A stretch of 21,627 bases of DNA. It comes from a virus. Lineage: Duplodnaviria; Heunggongvirae; Uroviricota; Caudoviricetes. Positions 3,715 through 21,191 of this stretch are shown piece by piece. The stretch lies in IMG/VR virus record IMGVR_UViG_2859788636_000004; one strand, written 5' to 3'. How positions within the stretch are numbered: the first letter of the stretch is position 1; each line of letters begins with the position of its first letter. A program made the position numbers and the translations under genes. The notes beneath the pieces were generated by a model. It made no database searches. It had not been told where the DNA came from and saw nothing but the letters and a program-made list of their open reading frames with translations.

Positions 3715-5139
3715 ATGAACACCGATAAACAAGTTTACCCACTGTATTACGAAGCAAAAAATGACAAAGTAAGAAAACGTCTCGGTATTAAAGGCGGTTT
3801 TTACTGGGCTGAAGCGAAAAAATTATCCATTGCCATCTCCCGTGGTGCTGTTGCGATTGACGATGCAGGCTACGATGAAGATGACTTTAAAAAACCTGTT
3901 CGCGTCAATTTGCCCGTTGTTGATGACCTCCCGCCAGAAGGCGTATTTGATACGGAATTCTGCAACCGTTACGAAAAAGGCGGGGAAGATGGCATCACAA
4001 TGGTATTTATCGCATCTTCTCCCTCTGTTCAGGACAAACCGGCCAGCACTGACAATACCAACGTCAACGGCGAAGACATGACAGAAATTGAGGAGAACAT
4101 GCTCCTGCCAGTTTCCGGTCAGGAACTGCCCATTCGCTGGCTTGCGCAACACGGCAGCGAAAAACCAGTAACGCACGTTTCACGCGACGAACTCCAGGCA
4201 TTACACATTGCTCGGGATGAAGAACTACCAGCTGTTACTGCCCTGGCTGTTTCCCACAAAACCAGCCTGCTCGATCCGCTGGAAATTCGCGATCTCCACA
4301 AACTGGTGCGTGATACTGACAGAGTTTTCCCTAATCCAGGCAATTCAAGCCTGGGGCTGATGACTGCTTTTTTCGAAGCATACATGGACGCAGACTACAC
4401 CGATCGCGGTCTGCTGACAAAAGAGTGGATGAAAGGAAATCGTGTTTCACGCATCACGCGCACGGCTTCCGGCGCTAATGCTGGCGGCGGGAACCTCACC
4501 GATCGCGGCGAAGGTTTCGTTCACGATCTGACGTCACTGGCGCGCGACGTAGCCACTGGCGTACTGGCTCGTTCAATGGACGTGGACATTTATAACCTTC
4601 ATCCGGCACACGCTAAACGTGTCGAGGAAATTATCGCTGAAAATAAACCGCCCTTTTCTGTTTTCCGCGACAAATTCATCACCATGCCTGGCGGGATGGA
4701 TTATTCCCGCGCCATCGTGGTTGCGTCAGTGAAAGAAGCACCGATTGGTATCGAGGTCATCCCCGCTCACGTCACTGAATATCTGAACAAGGTACTGACT
4801 GAAACCGATCATGCCAACCCTGATCCGGAAATCGTGGATATTGCCTGCGGTCGCTCCTCTGCCCCGATGCCGCAACGTGTAACAGAAGAAGGAAAACAGG
4901 ATGATGAAGAAAAAACGCAGCCATCTGGCGCAATGGCAGATGAACAGGCAACGGCTGAAACAATGGAACCGGATGCAACTGAACATCATCAGAACACGCA
5001 GCCGCTGGATGCTCAGTCACAGGTAAATTCTGTTGATGAGAAATATCAGGAACTACGGGCAGAACTCCATGAAGCCCGGAAAAACATTCCGCCCAAAAAT
5101 CCTGTCGATGCAGACAAATTACTGGCTGCCTTGAGGTAG
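3715..5139 (+). CDS. Hypothetical prophage protein, 474 aa, acidic C-terminal region; 3' end and stop codon lie in an IS600 end fragment
   Basis: Long uninterrupted ORF with ATG at 3715; internal repeated TDRG motif (YTDRGLL and NLTDRGEG) and a Gly-rich stretch; the last codons TTG-AGG-TAG overlap the IS600 left-end fragment starting at 5132. No family recognised from memory. Confidence 0.65.
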
Positions 5140-5143
5140 CCTG
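5132..5143 (+). repeat. Orphan 12-bp fragment identical to the first 12 bp of the IS600 left end
   Basis: TGAGGTAGCCTG equals bases 1-12 of the IS600 left end as seen in the copy at 19928; it directly abuts the right end of IS600 copy A. Confidence 0.5.
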
Positions 5144-5186
5144 TGAGGTGTACTGGCAATAGCGGACACTACCATTTGTTCTTTTT

Positions 5187-6005
5187 TTAAGCAGCCATCT
5201 GATGATATTTTTCCCTGAAGGCTGCCGGGGAGATATTCCCCAGACGAGAGTGACGACGCTGACGATTGTAGAAAATCTCAATGTATTCCCGTATTACTGA
5301 GGTGGCTTCATCCCGGTTATTAAAACGATAGTGGCTCAGGCTCTCATTTTTCAGCGTTCCCCAGAAGCTTTCCATCGGAGCGTTGTCGTAACAGTTACCT
5401 TTACGCGACATTGATGTTTTCAGACCAGACTGCTCCTGTATGACCCGGTAATCGTATGCGCAGTACTGTGAACCTCGATCAGAGTGGTGGATTAGCCCGG
5501 CAGGTGGGCGCTGGCTCCTGAGCGCCATAAACAGGGCTTTACCTGTCAGCTCTTTTGTCATGCGCTCTCCCATGGCGTAGCCGACAATTTCACACGTATA
5601 AACATCTTTGATGCCAGCGAGGTACAACCATCCCTCCTGTGTGGCAACATACGTCAGGTCCGCCACCCAGACCTGATTTGGTGCTGTAGGAGCGAACGTC
5701 TGGTTCAGCAGATTTGGCGCAACTGGCAGATTGTGGTTCGGGTTCGTAGTCGCTCTGAACTTGCGTTTCTGCTTACAGCGTAGCCTCAGCTCCTTACGAA
5801 GACGTGCCAGTCGGTCACGACCAACGATGATGCCATTCTCTGCCAGCTCCGTCTGGAGCCGCCGGGTTCCATATGTTTCGCGAGTGCGGATATGTGCCAC
5901 CTTAATCTCCAGTTTTAGCCGCTCATCACTTTGTTTTCTGTCTGAGGGTTCATGCTGTACCCAGTTGTAATAACCGCTCCTGGATACACCAAATACCTGA
6001 CACAT
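5187..6005 (-). CDS. IS600 OrfB transposase (DDE)
   Basis: 272-aa ORF, IS3-family integrase-core sequence (...IHHSDRGSQYCAYDY...SRKGNCYDNAPMESFWGTLK...). Confidence 0.9.
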   Translation of the reverse strand: MCQVFGVSRSGYYNWVQHEPSDRKQSDERLKLEIKVAHIRTRETYGTRRLQTELAENGIIVGRDRLARLRKELRLRCKQKRKFRATTNPNHNLPVAPNLLNQTFAPTAPNQVWVADLTYVATQEGWLYLAGIKDVYTCEIVGYAMGERMTKELTGKALFMALRSQRPPAGLIHHSDRGSQYCAYDYRVIQEQSGLKTSMSRKGNCYDNAPMESFWGTLKNESLSHYRFNNRDEATSVIREYIEIFYNRQRRHSRLGNISPAAFREKYHQMAA

Positions 6006-6040
6006 CGCTTCAATGGGAAATTGTTGTCGCCATTGTTCGA

Positions 6041-6343
6041 TTAACGCGTATTTTTCAGCGACTCCTGTGCAAAATACGCTGTTGCTTTTTTTAATATATC
6101 TCGCTCAAGGCGAGCTTCATTTAACGCCTTACGCAGTTGCAGAATTTCAGATTCCAGTTCAGCCACCGTGCGGGAACCAGGAGTACCGAGCCCTTTTCTG
6201 GCGGCGGTAACCCATTGTCCTAAAGTGCCTTCAGGAAGAGATAATCGGGAAGCGCCTTCACTGATCGAAAGTTGATTTTCAAGAACCGTTCTGACAGCTT
6301 CGGCTTTGAACTCTTTAGAGTAACGTTGGGTTTTTCTGCTCAT
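6041..6343 (-). CDS. IS600 OrfA (HTH transposase subunit)
   Basis: 100-aa [37 protein letters not shown]... with leucine-zipper-like C-terminus; A7G slippery run near its 3' end. Confidence 0.9.
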
Positions 6344-6407
6344 TATTAGCTCCTTCTGATGCCATTCTATTTCAGGAAGGAGTGTCCGTTAAACTCAGGC
6401 TACCTCA

Positions 6408-6658
6408 GAGCGCTTATCCGATTTTTGATCGTATTGAAGAAATGGCATGGGCTCGTCACTACCAGCAGATCGTTCGTGAAGAAAAAGAAACGGAACTGGC
6501 GGACGACCTGGAAAAAGGTCTGCCTCAGCACCTGTTTGAATCGCTCTGCATCGACCATTTGCAACGCCACGGTGCCAATAAACAGGCAATCAGCCACGCA
6601 TTTGATGATGATGTTGAGTTTCAGGAGCGCATGGCAGAACACATCCGGTACATGGCTG
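6408..6658 (+). pseudogene. Orphan internal gene fragment (about 83 codons) trapped between IS600 copy A and IS911
   Basis: Open frame ...[83 protein letters not shown] runs from the IS600 boundary into IS911 with no start or stop of its own; family not recognised. Confidence 0.3.
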
Positions 6659-6730
6659 TGAAGTGGCACACTGAATTTGGCCACCTGAACAGAGGTGATA
6701 TGCTCACCTCAGAACAACACAGGTGCTCCA

Positions 6731-7899
<1,169 letters not shown>

Positions 7900-8094
7900 C
7901 CACTTCAAGTAGTAGACGCCGTTACGCTGGTAGAGATAGTAGACTGCTGGAAGTTTGTGACTACTGGATAGCTGAATCATATGTCTGTATGCCCTGAGAG
8001 GGTTACACAGTGGGTTACAGTAAGTAACTCTGCAAGGAGGCTTAAAGCCGTATCCCTTAGGATTCAGTAGGTTGGAGTACTTTAAGAAAGGTCA

Positions 8095-8517: not shown

Positions 8518-9166
8518 CTTTCAAGTGTCCATGTCTGCTATTCGCCTCGCGATACAGCTTTGCGAAGCTTACCGGAATTGAAGCAGTTTATGTGCAAAAA
8601 TGCAAGAACTTTTTTAAAGCTGCATCAACCTTTCCACCAGTTTATCTCTGCGAACAACAAACCAACCATTGGCTCTCGCCAGTTCCAGCCATGACTCAAG
8701 GGAAATAACAATATCATCATCCCGTAACTGAATTGTGGAAACAGTGACACCGCCTCTCTGATAACAGAGAACTCGCGTGTCGTAACTTTTCTGGCATGAA
8801 ACTGGCGTTGACGGATCCCTTTGACTGAAATAGCAGTCTTCCAGTTTTTCGAACACATCCCACGCCTGATCGGTTTCGAGCATTTTGCCGTGGCGTGCTG
8901 CGCCTCGTTCTGTCCAGAGGATGAGGGAGCGGGCTTTGGGTGAAACTGGATTTTGTGAGTAGTTTAAAGCGACCCGCAATTCTTTAAGGTCATTACCAAC
9001 AACTTTGAAAAAGTGTTTCCCTTCAACGAAGCGTACTTTGTTCTCATGATGATTCTGGCGAATACGCACCGGCTCAGTGCCGTAAAGCTGCGCCAAAAGT
9101 TCGGTGGTAATAACAGGAATCTGTGAGGTGTACTGGCAATAGCGGACACTACCATTTGTTCTTTTT

Positions 9167-9985
9167 TTAAGCAGCCATCTGATGATATTTTTCCCTGAAG
9201 GCTGCCGGGGAGATATTCCCCAGACGAGAGTGACGACGCTGACGATTGTAGAAAATCTCAATGTATTCCCGTATTACTGAGATGGCTTCATCCCGGTTAT
9301 TAAAACGATAGTGGCTCAGGCTCTCATTTTTCAGCGTTCCCCAGAAGCTTTCCATCGGAGCGTTGTCGTAACAGTTACCTTTACGCGACATTGATGTTTT
9401 CAGACCAGACTGCTCCTGTATGACCCGGTAATCGTATGCGCAGTACTGTGAACCTCGATCAGAGTGGTGGATTAGCCCGGCAGGTGGGCGCTGGCTCCTG
9501 AGCGCCATAAACAGGGCTTTACCTGTCAGCTCTTTTGTCATGCGCTCTCCCATGGCGTAGCCGACAATTTCACACGTATAAACATCTTTGATGCCAGCGA
9601 GGTACAACCATCCCTCCTGTGTGGCAACATACGTCAGGTCCGCCACCCAGACCTGATTTGGTGCTGTAGGAGCGAACGTCTGGTTCAGCAGATTTGGCGC
9701 AACTGGCAGATTGTGGTTCGGGTTCGTAGTCGCTCTGAACTTGCGTTTCTGCTTACAGCGTAGCCTTAGCTCCTTACGAAGACGTGCCAGTCGGTCACGA
9801 CCAACGATGATGCCATTCTCTGCCAGCTCCGTCTGGAGCCGCCGGGTTCCATATGTTTCGCGAGTGCGGATATGTGCCACCTTAATCTCCAGTTTTAGCC
9901 GCTCATCACTTTGTTTTCTGTCTGAGGGTTCATGCTGTACCCAGTTGTAATAACCGCTCCTGGATACACCAAATACCTGACACAT
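9167..9985 (-). CDS. IS600 OrfB transposase
   Basis: 272 aa; one amino-acid difference from the copy A protein. Confidence 0.9.
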   Translation of the reverse strand: MCQVFGVSRSGYYNWVQHEPSDRKQSDERLKLEIKVAHIRTRETYGTRRLQTELAENGIIVGRDRLARLRKELRLRCKQKRKFRATTNPNHNLPVAPNLLNQTFAPTAPNQVWVADLTYVATQEGWLYLAGIKDVYTCEIVGYAMGERMTKELTGKALFMALRSQRPPAGLIHHSDRGSQYCAYDYRVIQEQSGLKTSMSRKGNCYDNAPMESFWGTLKNESLSHYRFNNRDEAISVIREYIEIFYNRQRRHSRLGNISPAAFREKYHQMAA

Positions 9986-10020
9986 CGCTTCAATGGGAAA
10001 TTGTTGTCGCCATTGTTCGA

Positions 10021-10323
10021 TTAACGCGTATTTTTCAGCGACTCCTGTGCAAAATACGCTGTTGCTTTTTTTAATATATCTCGCTCAAGGCGAGCTTCAT
10101 TTAACGCCTTACGCAGTTGCAGAATTTCAGATTCCAGTTCAGCCACCGTGCGGGAACCAGGAGTACCGAGCCCTTTTCTGGCGGCGGTAACCCATTGTCC
10201 TAAAGTGCCTTCAGGAAGAGATAATCGGGAAGCGCCTTCACTGATCGAAAGTTGATTTTCAAGAACCGTTCTGACAGCTTCGGCTTTGAACTCTTTAGAG
10301 TAACGTTGGGTTTTTCTGCTCAT
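10021..10323 (-). CDS. IS600 OrfA
   Basis: 100 aa, identical to the copy A OrfA. Confidence 0.9.
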   Translation of the reverse strand: MSRKTQRYSKEFKAEAVRTVLENQLSISEGASRLSLPEGTLGQWVTAARKGLGTPGSRTVAELESEILQLRKALNEARLERDILKKATAYFAQESLKNTR

Positions 10324-10600
10324 TATTAGCTCCTTCTGATGCCATTCTATTTCAGGAAGGAGTGTCCGTTAAACTCAGGCTACCTCACTGGTTATGGGTG
10401 ATCGGGGAGAGAGTTTCAACAGAGATTTGAGTGGTCATAACGATAACTCCGTACATTTGGAAATTATCGCCACCGACGACGCCAATCGAACTGGTGGCGA
10501 ACTGTGCAGGGTTGGCGTAACCGGGTACGGAAACCGGCGAGCCTTTCGGCTCCCCCACACAGCCCGCCATAAATCGCGAATGTGACTGTGCAAACGATAT

Positions 10601-12560: not shown

Positions 12561-12982
12561 CCTCGCGCATACAACCGGGCAGTGATGTGATTGTCTGCGC
12601 TGAAATGGACGAACATTGGGGCTACGTCGGTGCTAAATCACGTCAGCGCTGGCTGTTTTACGCGTATGACAGGATACGGAGGACGGTTGTGGCGCACGTC
12701 TTCGGTGAACGCACTCTGGCCACACTGGAGCGTCTTCTGAGCCTGCTGTCGGCCTTTGAGGTCGTGGTATGGATGACGGATGGCTGTCCGCTGTATGAAT
12801 CACGCCTGAAGGGAAAGCTGCACGTTATCAGCAAGCGTTACACTCAGCGCATTGAGCGACATAATCTGAATCTGAGACAACATCTGGCAAGGCTGGTACG
12901 GAAGTCACTGTCGTTCTCAAAATCGGTGGAGCTGCATGACAAGGTCATCGGGCATTATCTGAACATAAAACACTATCAGTAA
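12479..12982 (+). CDS. insB: IS1 InsB reading frame (expressed as InsAB' by -1 frameshift)
   Basis: 167-aa frame overlapping insA; C-terminus matches the partial copy at 1-294. Confidence 0.9.
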
Positions 12983-12999
12983 GTTGGAGTCATTACCTA

Positions 13000-17397: not shown

Positions 17398-18235
17398 GGT
17401 CTGTTACCCCCTGAAGCCTAGCGGGATCGCACTGTCCGGCAACGAGACGGTGTTAACCTGTCGGAGCAACGTCTCAGGCCGAACACCTTTCGGCGCGAAC
17501 AGACCCTGGTATTCATTGGCGATGCTGTGTCGAATCACCTGCTCAGGTGTAAAACCCTGCTGACGGAATTTTTCCAGTTCCCGTATCGCCCCGTTAGCGC
17601 CCAGCTCCGTTCGAATCGGTTTTCGCAATGCCTGCCTGAACTGGACCCACTCATGCCAGAGTGTTTCTGGCAACCAGTCGGGCAGATCAACTGACAACGG
17701 GTCAAATTTTTTCTGGCGAACAGCCCCACCGATAACCAGAATTCCCTGCTCGGTGTGCCTTGCGATATCACTGCGCCGCAAGACACATATCCCGGTTTCA
17801 ACAGCACCGATTTTGAGCAGTGATTTCTGTCGCGGAGAATTTCGGTCAAGCTCGATCCCACACCGGACACCGTTCCTGTCAGTCACGACGATATCAATCC
17901 GCCCTCCGCAACCGTCACCACGCTCTGGCACCGGATACTCACGACAGACATCCAGGCCAGCAGCCTGCAACGCAACCACCGCAGAATTACAAAATTCCGC
18001 TGCAGTACCGCCAGATAATCTCCCCTCAAGCACTCCAGCCACAAAATCCCGAAACTCCCTTCCGGAAGGGAAGGGTTTGGGATGGGTTAGATCTGTTTTT
18101 AGATCTTTATCTGTATCTTTATTAGTTGCCTTTGTGTTGGCATCTAGACTGGCCCCCTGAATCTCCAGACAACCAGTATCACTTATTTAAGTGATAGTCT
18201 TAATACTAGTTTTTAGACTAGTCATTGGAGAACAG

Positions 18236-18601
18236 ATGATTGATGTCTTAGGGCCGGAGAAACGCAGACGGCGTACCACACAGGAAAAGATCGCAATTGT
18301 TCAGCAGAGCTTTGAACCGGGGATGACGGTCTCCCTCGTTGCCCGGCAACATGGTGTAGCAGCCAGCCAGTTATTTCTCTGGCGTAAGCAATACCAGGAA
18401 GGAAGTCTTACTGCTGTGGCCGCCGGAGAACAGGTTGTTCCTGCCTCTGAACTTGCTGCCGCCATGAAGCAGATTAAAGAACTCCAGCGCCTGCTCGGCA
18501 AGAAAACGATGAAAAATGAACTCCTCAAAGAAGCCGTTGAATATGGACGGGCAAAAAAGTGGATAGCGCACGCGCCCTTATTGCCCGGGGATGGGGAGTA
18601 A
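18236..18601 (+). CDS. insC: IS2 OrfA (InsC)
   Basis: Protein identical to the copy at 1569-1934. Confidence 0.9.
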
Positions 18602-19464
18602 GCTTAGTCAGCCGTTGTCTCCGGGTGTCGCGTGCGCAGTTGCACGTCATTCTCAGACGAACCGATGACTGGATGGATGGCCGCCGCAGTCGTCACACTG
18701 ATGATACGGATGTGCTTCTCCGTATACACCATGTTATCGGAGAGCTGCCCACGTATGGTTATCGTCGGGTATGGGCGCTGCTTCGCAGACAGGCAGAACT
18801 TGATGGTATGCCTGCGATCAATGCCAAACGTGTTTACCGGCTCATGCGCCAGAATGCGCTGTTGCTTGAGCGAAAACCTGCTGTACCGCCATCGAAACGG
18901 GCACATACAGGCAGAGTGGCCGTGAAAGAAAGCAATCAGCGATGGTGCTCTGACGGGTTCGAGTTCTGCTGTGATAACGGAGAGAGACTGCGTGTCACGT
19001 TCGCGCTGGACTGCTGTGATCGTGAGGCACTGCACTGGGCGGTGACTACCGGCGGCTTCAACAGTGAAACAGTACAGGACGTCATGCTGGGAGCAGTGGA
19101 ACGCCGCTTCGGCAACGATCTTCCGTCGTCTCCAGTGGAGTGGCTGACGGATAATGGTTCATGCTACCGGGCTAATGAAACACGCCAGTTCGCCCGGATG
19201 TTGGGACTTGAACCGAAGAACACGGCGGTGCGGAGTCCGGAGAGTAACGGAATAGCAGAGAGCTTCGTGAAAACGATAAAGCGTGACTACATCAGTATCA
19301 TGCCCAAACCAGACGGGTTAACGGCAGCAAAGAACCTTGCAGAGGCGTTCGAGCATTATAACGAATGGCATCCGCATAGTGCGCTGGGTTATCGCTCGCC
19401 ACGGGAATATCTGCGGCAGCGGGCTTGTAATGGGTTAAGTGATAACAGATGTCTGGAAATATAG
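18559..19464 (+). CDS. insD: IS2 OrfB (InsD)
   Basis: Protein identical to the copy at 1892-2797. Confidence 0.9.
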
Positions 19465-19991
19465 GGGCAAATCCAGCATCATGTTCGAACACCACTCCAA
19501 CATCTGTTTGAACACCTGTTAAATTTCTCTCTTGTTTTGTTTGAACATCTGCTTCCTTTCTGCTTCTTCTGGCCTGAACAGATGCTTTTCCTGCGGCTGA
19601 TTTTTTGGTTAATTTTTCTCTGACAGATGCCAGATCTTCCTCAATCCGAAGATGCATCCATTCGTCGCCGTTATCACAAAAAAACTCCCGCAAGGATGGT
19701 TCAACATCAACCCATCGCTCGTTAGTCAGACGGGCAATTTTTGCCAACCTGTTTTTGGGTATTGGCTTTCCTGTTTGCCAGTAATTGAACATCAGCAACA
19801 AATACGCGCCGTGCTCCTCTGCTGACAAATGCATGGTGTCAGCCAGGTAATCAGCTATGTACAGTTGCATGTATGGTAATGCGGCCATAATTGCCCCGTA
19901 TGATGCTACCCGGTTGCTTAGAATAAGTGAGGTAGCCTGAGTTTAACGGACACTCCTTCCTGAAATAGAATGGCATCAGAAGGAGCTAATA

Positions 19992-20294
19992 ATGAGCAGA
20001 AAAACCCAACGTTACTCTAAAGAGTTCAAAGCCGAAGCTGTCAGAACGGTTCTTGAAAATCAACTTTCGATCAGTGAAGGCGCTTCCCGATTATCCCTTC
20101 CTGAAGGCACTTTAGGACAATGGGTTACCGCCGCCAGAAAAGGGCTCGGTACTCCTGGTTCCCGCACGGTGGCTGAACTGGAATCTGAAATTCTGCAACT
20201 GCGTAAGGCGTTAAATGAAGCTCGCCTTGAGCGAGATATATTAAAAAAAGCAACAGTGTATTTTGCACAGGAGTCGCTGAAAAATACGCGTTAA
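19992..20294 (+). CDS. IS600 OrfA
   Basis: 100 aa; one substitution (A to V) relative to copies A and B. Confidence 0.9.
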   Translation: MSRKTQRYSKEFKAEAVRTVLENQLSISEGASRLSLPEGTLGQWVTAARKGLGTPGSRTVAELESEILQLRKALNEARLERDILKKATVYFAQESLKNTR

Positions 20295-20329
20295 TCGAAC
20301 AATGGCGACAACAATTTCCCATTGAAGCG

Positions 20330-21148
20330 ATGTGTCAGGTATTTGGTGTATCCAGGAGCGGTTATTACAACTGGGTACAGCATGAACCCTCAGACAGAAA
20401 ACAAAGTGATGAGCGGCTAACACTGGAGATTAAGGTGGCACATATCCGCACTCGCGAAACATATGGAACCCGGCGGCTCCAGACGGAGCTGGCAGAGAAT
20501 GGCATCATCGTTGGTCGTGACCGACTGGCACGTCTTCGTAAGGAGCTGAGGCTACGCTGTAAGCAGAAACGCAAGTTCAGAGCGACTACGAACCCGAACC
20601 ACAATCTGCCAGTTGCGCCAAATCTGCTGAACCAGACGTTCGCTCCTACAGCACCAAATCAGGTCTGGGTGGCGGACCTGACGTATGTTGCCACACAGGA
20701 GGGATGGTTGTACCTCGCTGGCATCAAAGATGTTTATACGTGTGAAATTGTCGGCTACGCCATGGGAGAGCGCATGACAAAAGAGCTGACAGGTAAAGCC
20801 CTGTTTATGGCGCTCAGGAGCCAGCGCCCACCTGCCGGGCTAATCCACCACTCTGATCGAGGTTCACAGTACTGCGCATACGATTACCGGGTCATACAGG
20901 AGCAGTCTGGTCTGAAAACATCAATGTCGCGTAAAGGTAACTGTTACGACAACGCTCCGATGGAAAGCTTCTGGGGAACGCTGAAAAATGAGAGCCTGAG
21001 CCACTATCGTTTTAATAACCGGGATGAAGCCATCTCAGTAATACGGGAATACATTGAGATTTTCTACAATCGTCAGCGTCGTCACTCTCGTCTGGGGAAT
21101 ATCTCCCCGGCAGCCTTCAGGGAAAAATATCATCAGATGGCTGCTTAA
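20330..21148 (+). CDS. IS600 OrfB transposase
   Basis: 272 aa; a few substitutions relative to copies A and B. Confidence 0.9.
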   Translation: MCQVFGVSRSGYYNWVQHEPSDRKQSDERLTLEIKVAHIRTRETYGTRRLQTELAENGIIVGRDRLARLRKELRLRCKQKRKFRATTNPNHNLPVAPNLLNQTFAPTAPNQVWVADLTYVATQEGWLYLAGIKDVYTCEIVGYAMGERMTKELTGKALFMALRSQRPPAGLIHHSDRGSQYCAYDYRVIQEQSGLKTSMSRKGNCYDNAPMESFWGTLKNESLSHYRFNNRDEAISVIREYIEIFYNRQRRHSRLGNISPAAFREKYHQMAA

Positions 21149-21191
21149 AAAAAGAACAAATGGTAGTGTCCGCTATTGCCAGTACACCTCA

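Follow-up and report, generated by a model that had tools for sequence, protein, structure and literature searches.

The closest described systems concern insertion sequences that meet other copies of themselves. In the IR-targeting known from IS30 and IS911, an incoming end attaches beside the tip of a target repeat, which yields an abutted IRL-IRR tip-to-tip junction (PMC9333248), in which the tips lie 2-3 bp apart and an active junction is created (PMC9333248). In IS150, a member of the IS3 family, anchored deletions arise from a new insertion that then recombines with an existing copy (PMC7881107). Here we describe a junction in a 21,627-nt stretch of viral DNA (IMG/VR record IMGVR_UViG_2859788636_000004; hereafter the window, meaning the whole stretch analysed) at which the outermost 12 nt of one IS600 adjoin a complete, inverted IS600 between the recE and gam genes of a prophage. 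Judging from comparison with related loci, this junction probably reflects an older IS600 in recE and an inverted IS600 (copy A) in gam, followed by a tip-anchored deletion that left only nt 1-12 of the older element.

The window is a mosaic in which at least five kinds of IS occur. Besides IS600, it contains two copies (1477-2810 and 18144-19477) that are 100% identical and were taken as IS2 from their ORF sizes, and a repeated fragment (1-309 and 12689-12997; 99% identical) that was taken as IS1. Three complete IS600 copies of 1264 bp are present, and these differ from one another at 2-4 bases, with copy A differing from copy B at 2 and from copy C at 4. Copy A occupies 5144-6407 on the minus strand (IRR tip at 5144, IRL tip at 6407), with orfA at 6041-6343 and orfB at 5187-6005. 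It has the features of IS600 (IS3 family), namely imperfect terminal inverted repeats with a TG start and a CA end (tips TGAGGTAGCC... and TGAGGTGTAC...); its 100-aa and 272-aa ORFs both matched NF033516 (transpos_IS3) in a profile search, and the annotation of E. coli matches to it names an IS600 family transposase that uses a programmed frameshift. Copy B (9124-10387, minus strand) is flanked by CTG on either side and served as the reference copy with an intact 3-bp duplication, while copy C (19928-21191, plus strand), the reference copy without one, is flanked by AAG and GGA and thus also sits at a rearranged junction. The flanks of copy A are CTG and GAG, and we read the missing 3-bp target duplication as a consequence of later rearrangement rather than as a sign that the element is not IS600.

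Directly outside the right end of copy A, the bases at 5132-5143 (plus strand) read TGAGGTAGCCTG, which is nt 1-12 of copies A-C and which we interpret as the left end (IRL) of the older IS600. This 12-mer occurs exactly four times in the 21.6-kb window, three times at the left-end tips of the complete copies (6396-6407 and 10376-10387, both minus strand, and 19928-19939, plus strand) and once alone. The solo copy directly adjoins the right-end tip of copy A (TGAGGTGTACTGG...), and the outside-to-inside direction is the same for both. The initial annotation had recognized these bases as the first 12 bp of the IS600 left end adjoining the right end of an inverted copy, and had noted that they end in the CTG that also flanks copy B; sequence and coordinates agree on both points. 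If transposase made the junction, this CTG would represent the half of a target duplication that survived.

Taken alone, a 12-nt match between IS600 and a 21.6-kb window is expected by chance, and about five unrelated matches of this length were indeed found (blastn-short E=1.3 each); searches of the window returned no further IS600 fragments. Such random matches lend some color to the explanation that the 12-mer is native recE sequence that resembles IS600 by accident, or else an assembly artefact. We give that explanation almost no credence, since the native bases differ, the 12 nt matched are precisely the terminal ones and fall at the exact break in homology, a 191-nt version of the remnant exists, and the identical junction is found in 12 further complete assemblies as well as in 4 IMG/VR contigs, which also disposes of the worry about assembly raised in the initial annotation. 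What makes so short a match significant is therefore its context: it comprises exactly nt 1-12, adjoins an IS600 tip, starts where homology breaks off, and has a 191-nt sister allele. The relic leaves copy A bracketed by perfect 12-bp inverted repeats of left-end type (5132-5143 and 6396-6407). The resulting 1276-bp unit (12-mer plus copy A) did not occur beyond the recE/gam locus in our searches; it has thus not moved as a whole, and there is no sign that transposase uses the outer tip. No function is plausible for the 12-mer, which is a dead scar.

On the left, the relic terminates a truncated recE-family (exodeoxyribonuclease VIII) gene at 3715..5139 (plus strand), which consists of 472 native codons followed by Leu-Arg-stop contributed by the IS600 tip (T/TG AGG TAG). 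The product matches positions 1-474 of the 877-position NCBIfam profile PRK09709 and shares 95% identity with the first 474 residues of E. coli RecE proteins 1042 aa in length; where full-length RecE reads ...KLLAASR and continues for 568 more residues, the window ORF ends in ...KLLAALR-stop. Exact copies of this 474-aa product are recorded for 692 contigs, and their sources name it S. flexneri exonuclease VIII. In alignments with the closest IS-free relatives, two E. coli prophages (L001 and L002), recE-family homology stops exactly at 5131. The native gene follows ...CTGGCTGCCT with CTCGCGGAGAAT (CTCGCGG...) and not with TGAGGTAGCCTG. The initial annotation had proposed comparison with related genomes, and had allowed that the 12-mer might prove native to IS-free homologues; this is not so, as the native bases are CTCGCGGAGAAT and RecE continues with ...LLAASR, and the relic reading is borne out by L001 and L002 as well as by the contig with the longer remnant (L012, below). 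All 12 bases are thus those of IS600 nt 1-12, and they begin at the homology break at 5131/5132. The last 3 bases of homology, CCT (5129..5131, plus strand), are presumably the left copy of the older element's target duplication, because they directly precede the IS600 tip and IS600 makes 3-bp duplications; the right copy would have been deleted.

On the right, homology to L001 and L002 restarts exactly at 6408, which corresponds to nt 3 of the gam start codon (ATG/AGC...; window GAGCGC), and the 503 bp that separate the two flanks in these prophages are missing from the window. The gam (host-nuclease inhibitor) remnant spans 6408..6658 (plus strand), begins at nt 3 of the ATG and adjoins the IRL tip of copy A. 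With recE cut at codon 472, its C-terminal half gone, and gam deprived of its start codon, both genes are inactivated. We also considered a simple insertion with a GAG duplication and 8 additional bases, under which recE would stay in frame through the IS and beyond it on the right, and rejected it, as the flanks lie 503 bp apart and belong to different genes. A putative GTG-initiated ORF (6382-6750, plus strand) starts inside the IS600 left end and runs out into the gam remnant, and gene callers annotate the 106-122-aa products of ORFs of this type in related genomes as Gam (PF06064). The gam remnant ends at a 1250-bp IS911 (6659..7908, plus strand; flanks CTG and AGT), which was delimited by its end sequences and is not part of the scar. 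This IS911 is present in gam in L015, L018, L020 and L021 and absent from L007, L008, L016, L017, L019 and L022-L024; the DNA to its right does not continue gam, which implies a further rearrangement.

The most informative relative is L012, an IMG/VR contig in which nt 1-191 of IS600, in plus orientation, begin at the same recE base as the 12-mer. This 191-nt remnant directly adjoins the IRR tip of an inverted IS600, and on the far side of that copy is the identical IRL/GAGCGC junction with gam, so that the 12-nt and 191-nt alleles share their recE and gam junctions, and only the length of the surviving older IS600 sets them apart. At the identical recE site and in the same orientation, L012 therefore retains a longer stretch of this element, and as far as sequence can tell it confirms that an older, plus-oriented IS600 lies behind the 12-mer. 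At position 4167 L012 carries the E. coli-like base, while all sampled genomes with the 12-nt allele share a derived base, which makes L012 a sister or outgroup lineage; it is either a lineage that stopped at nt 191 or an earlier step toward the 12-nt allele. The 191-nt allele was seen in this one contig only, and a 66-aa chimeric ORF that spans its junction had no entry by exact look-up. A misassembly that joined nt 191 to an exact IS tip without overlap is unlikely. The inverted IS600 of L012 is itself interrupted at 8776-10085 by a 1310-bp IS629-like element, with 11-12 nt of IS600 missing at the insertion point.

The 12-nt junction itself is shared more widely. The recE flank, the 12-mer, the inverted IS600 and the gam flank are identical in 12 other complete genomes, comprising L007 and L008 from the species-representative collection and L015-L024 from NCBI, and in 4 IMG/VR contigs (L009, L010, L011/L014 and L013). 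Among 5426 complete E. coli genomes there were 0 carriers of the junction, and the top E. coli matches that seemingly reach into the 12-mer were dismissed as chance similarity with unrelated flanks; neither of the two metagenome scans gave a match. In L007 and L008 (CP178302, CP182556) the IS600 at this locus is a mosaic with 50 differences from copy A of the window, 46 of which fall within about 425 bp (approximately window 5584-6008; roughly 10% divergence) between identical flanks. Such a pattern suggests that a divergent IS600-like copy acted as donor in gene conversion. In the other carrier genomes the IS copy differs at 0-6 scattered positions.

To reconstruct the order of events, we relied on what the two alleles share. 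The IRL/gam junction is the same in L012 and all other carriers, and it thus most likely predates both left junctions, which makes the joining of nt 12 to the IRR tip the later event. Under the preferred reading, the first step was insertion of an older IS600, in plus orientation, into the recE-family gene of the prophage, which was thereby cut short at codon 472; this step we regard as established. Copy A, inverted, would already have been present at gam nt 2/3, about 0.5 kb downstream of the older IS600 and presumably with a GAG duplication; its prior presence in gam is something we infer from the right junction common to both alleles. Nucleotides 13-1264 of the older IS600 would then have been lost together with at least 503 bp of recE and gam-upstream DNA, up to the IRR tip of copy A. 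Several ancestral and related states can be written out accordingly. A GAG-duplicated ancestral copy A would read GACCAGTGATGAG+TGAGGTGTACTGG, an intact right end of the older IS600 would read CCAGTACACCTCA+CCT+CTCGCGGAG, and remnants of any length at the recE site would begin ACTGGCTGCCT+TGAGGTAGCCTG. In searches for the ancestor we found no match to copy A with GAG on both sides, none to the right end of the older IS600 next to CTCGCGG (nor a complete older copy), and no genome with both IS600 copies intact, so the ancestor with two intact copies is one that we infer; in E. coli there was neither an IS600 at the recE site nor a junction at nt 191.

The initial annotation had proposed a different order, in which copy A inserted into the terminal repeat of the older IS600 and the remainder of that element was later deleted. 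Spelled out, copy A would have inserted inverted, either directly at nt 12/13 or at nt 191/192 (as in L012) with a later loss of 179 bp, and the rest of the older IS600 and 503 bp would then have been deleted from the left-end tip of copy A up to gam nt 3. The older IS600 on which this proposal rests is real, given L012; the order fares less well, given the gam junction that the alleles have in common, and we consider it rather unlikely. To its credit, CTG occupies the place expected for the surviving half of a 3-bp duplication, remnants of inverted IS600-in-IS600 arrangements occur elsewhere (e.g., L100), and an inverted nest at 12/13 would form two inverted arms of about 1255 bp separated by a 9-bp spacer, which would be expected to be unstable and would supply a motive for the loss of one arm. 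For an insertion directly at 12/13, however, the identical IRL/gam junction of L012 would mean that two deletions had independently stopped at one and the same base, and separate insertions at 12/13 and 191/192 are disfavored on the same ground, since two independent deletions would have to end at one gam base. If copy A instead entered first at nt 191, deletions would be needed at both of its tips, and the joining of nt 12 to IRR would still be a deletion junction and not an insertion junction. A nested insertion at 12/13 would have as its reciprocal junction ...CAGGCTACCTCA CTG AGTTTAACGG... (string CAGGCTACCTCA+CTG+AGTTTAACGGACAC), which did not come up incidentally in the collections searched; in the window, what follows copy A on the right is gam (GAGCGC...) and not CTG+AGTTTAACGG.

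As to how the deletion occurred, neither the 12-nt nor the 191-nt junction shows microhomology, and both have their right end exactly at the IRR tip of copy A. Deletion exactly at an IS tip without microhomology points to a transposition-dependent process and not to slippage. A microhomology deletion between TGAG at nt 11-14 of the older element and TGAG at the IRR tip was considered and rejected (expected GCCTGAGGTG, observed GCCTGTGAGGTG), as was a remnant of a circle junction or tandem dimer, relative to which the 12-mer is inverted. Within the preferred reading, the most likely route would be that a further IS600 inserted at nt 12/13 in the orientation of copy A, with CTG as target, and that homologous recombination between the two direct copies followed, which is the standard route for a copy-out-paste-in element and the one reported for IS150 (PMC7881107). 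Such an insertion of another IS600 at 12/13 and its recombination with copy A would keep part of the idea in the initial annotation. Alternatively, transposase may have made an end-anchored deletion directly. Both routes leave the same final sequence. We looked for a hybrid signature in the IS copies, and their base patterns are scrambled by gene conversion among IS600 copies, so that base differences between copies do not discriminate between the routes. An intermediate with two direct IS600 copies was not found in our searches.

To place the junction among IS600 sites more generally, we surveyed those in the fetched loci L025-L140 together with the window, which yielded 64 distinct complete copies. 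The 3-bp duplication was kept at 27 of the 64 sites and absent at the other 37, and most IS600 copies in the surveyed prophage regions have been involved in later recombination or deletion. CAG (complement CTG) was the commonest duplication, at 3 of the 27 sites against a background of 2.4% (p=0.027, uncorrected), such that the CTG common to copy B and the 12-mer reflects at most a weak target preference. Distinct junctions between one IS600 and another numbered five (L037, L085, L100, L012 and the window) among roughly 110 distinct IS600 flanks. Two of these are direct, with a complete IS600 and nt 181-1264 in L037 (2681-5028) and with nt 1-400 and a complete IS600 in L085 (5008-6671), and L100 (4989-6372) holds a 117-nt right-end piece and a complete IS600 in inverted arrangement.

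These junctions bear on the suggestion, also made in the initial annotation, that the tendency of IS3-family elements to target their own ends was at work here. On this account, as in IS911 and IS30, transposase bound to the older left repeat would have steered the incoming end into or near that repeat. IR-targeting is known for both of those elements (PMC9333248), and both breakpoints at the recE site (nt 12 and nt 191) fall in the left 15% of the older IS600. Two breakpoints carry no statistical weight, however, and detection of L012 required that the first 12 nt be kept; the other IS600/IS600 breakpoints lie at nt 181, 400 and 1148. The geometry differs as well, as nt 12 of IRL is followed by the IRR tip with both repeats in the same direction (tandem), that is 12 nt inside the repeat, and in L012 the join (at 191 nt) lies outside the repeat altogether. 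We therefore regard own-end targeting as very unlikely and not needed to explain the junction. A more specific form, in which transposase tethered to the left repeat of a neighboring copy prefers strand transfer into its first ~200 bp and not beside the tip, strikes us as equally doubtful, a long shot at best. If true, it would amount to a variant of IR-targeting that erodes neighboring copies from inside and leaves short solo tips.

Overall, the 12-nt tip is an ordinary scar of an already known kind in the IS-riddled genome of Shigella flexneri, and it matters little beyond bookkeeping. As bookkeeping, it indicates that the recE/gam region of an S. flexneri prophage took at least two IS600 hits, later IS911 in some strains, and a partial deletion; the 12-nt and 191-nt alleles offer a small, clean lineage marker; and very short solo IS tips that annotation misses can record elements since lost.

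Compared with known systems, the locus resembles the IS150-anchored deletions, in that the deletion ends at an IS tip, there is no microhomology, the surviving IS has no duplication, and the element belongs to the IS3 family. It differs from them in that the lost DNA includes most of an oppositely oriented copy of the same IS, leaving a 12-nt solo tip, and in that no intermediate with two direct copies was seen here. As with IR-targeted IS911 and IS30, one copy of a copy-out-paste-in element has come to adjoin a terminal repeat that belongs to a second copy; unlike in those cases, the arrangement is tandem, the join lies 12 nt within the repeat, and the 1276-bp unit has stayed in place. Finally, as in nested and truncated IS elements of Shigella and E. 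coli, a terminal IS fragment adjoins a complete copy, the difference being that this remnant, at 12 nt, is unusually small and would go unrecorded by annotation pipelines.
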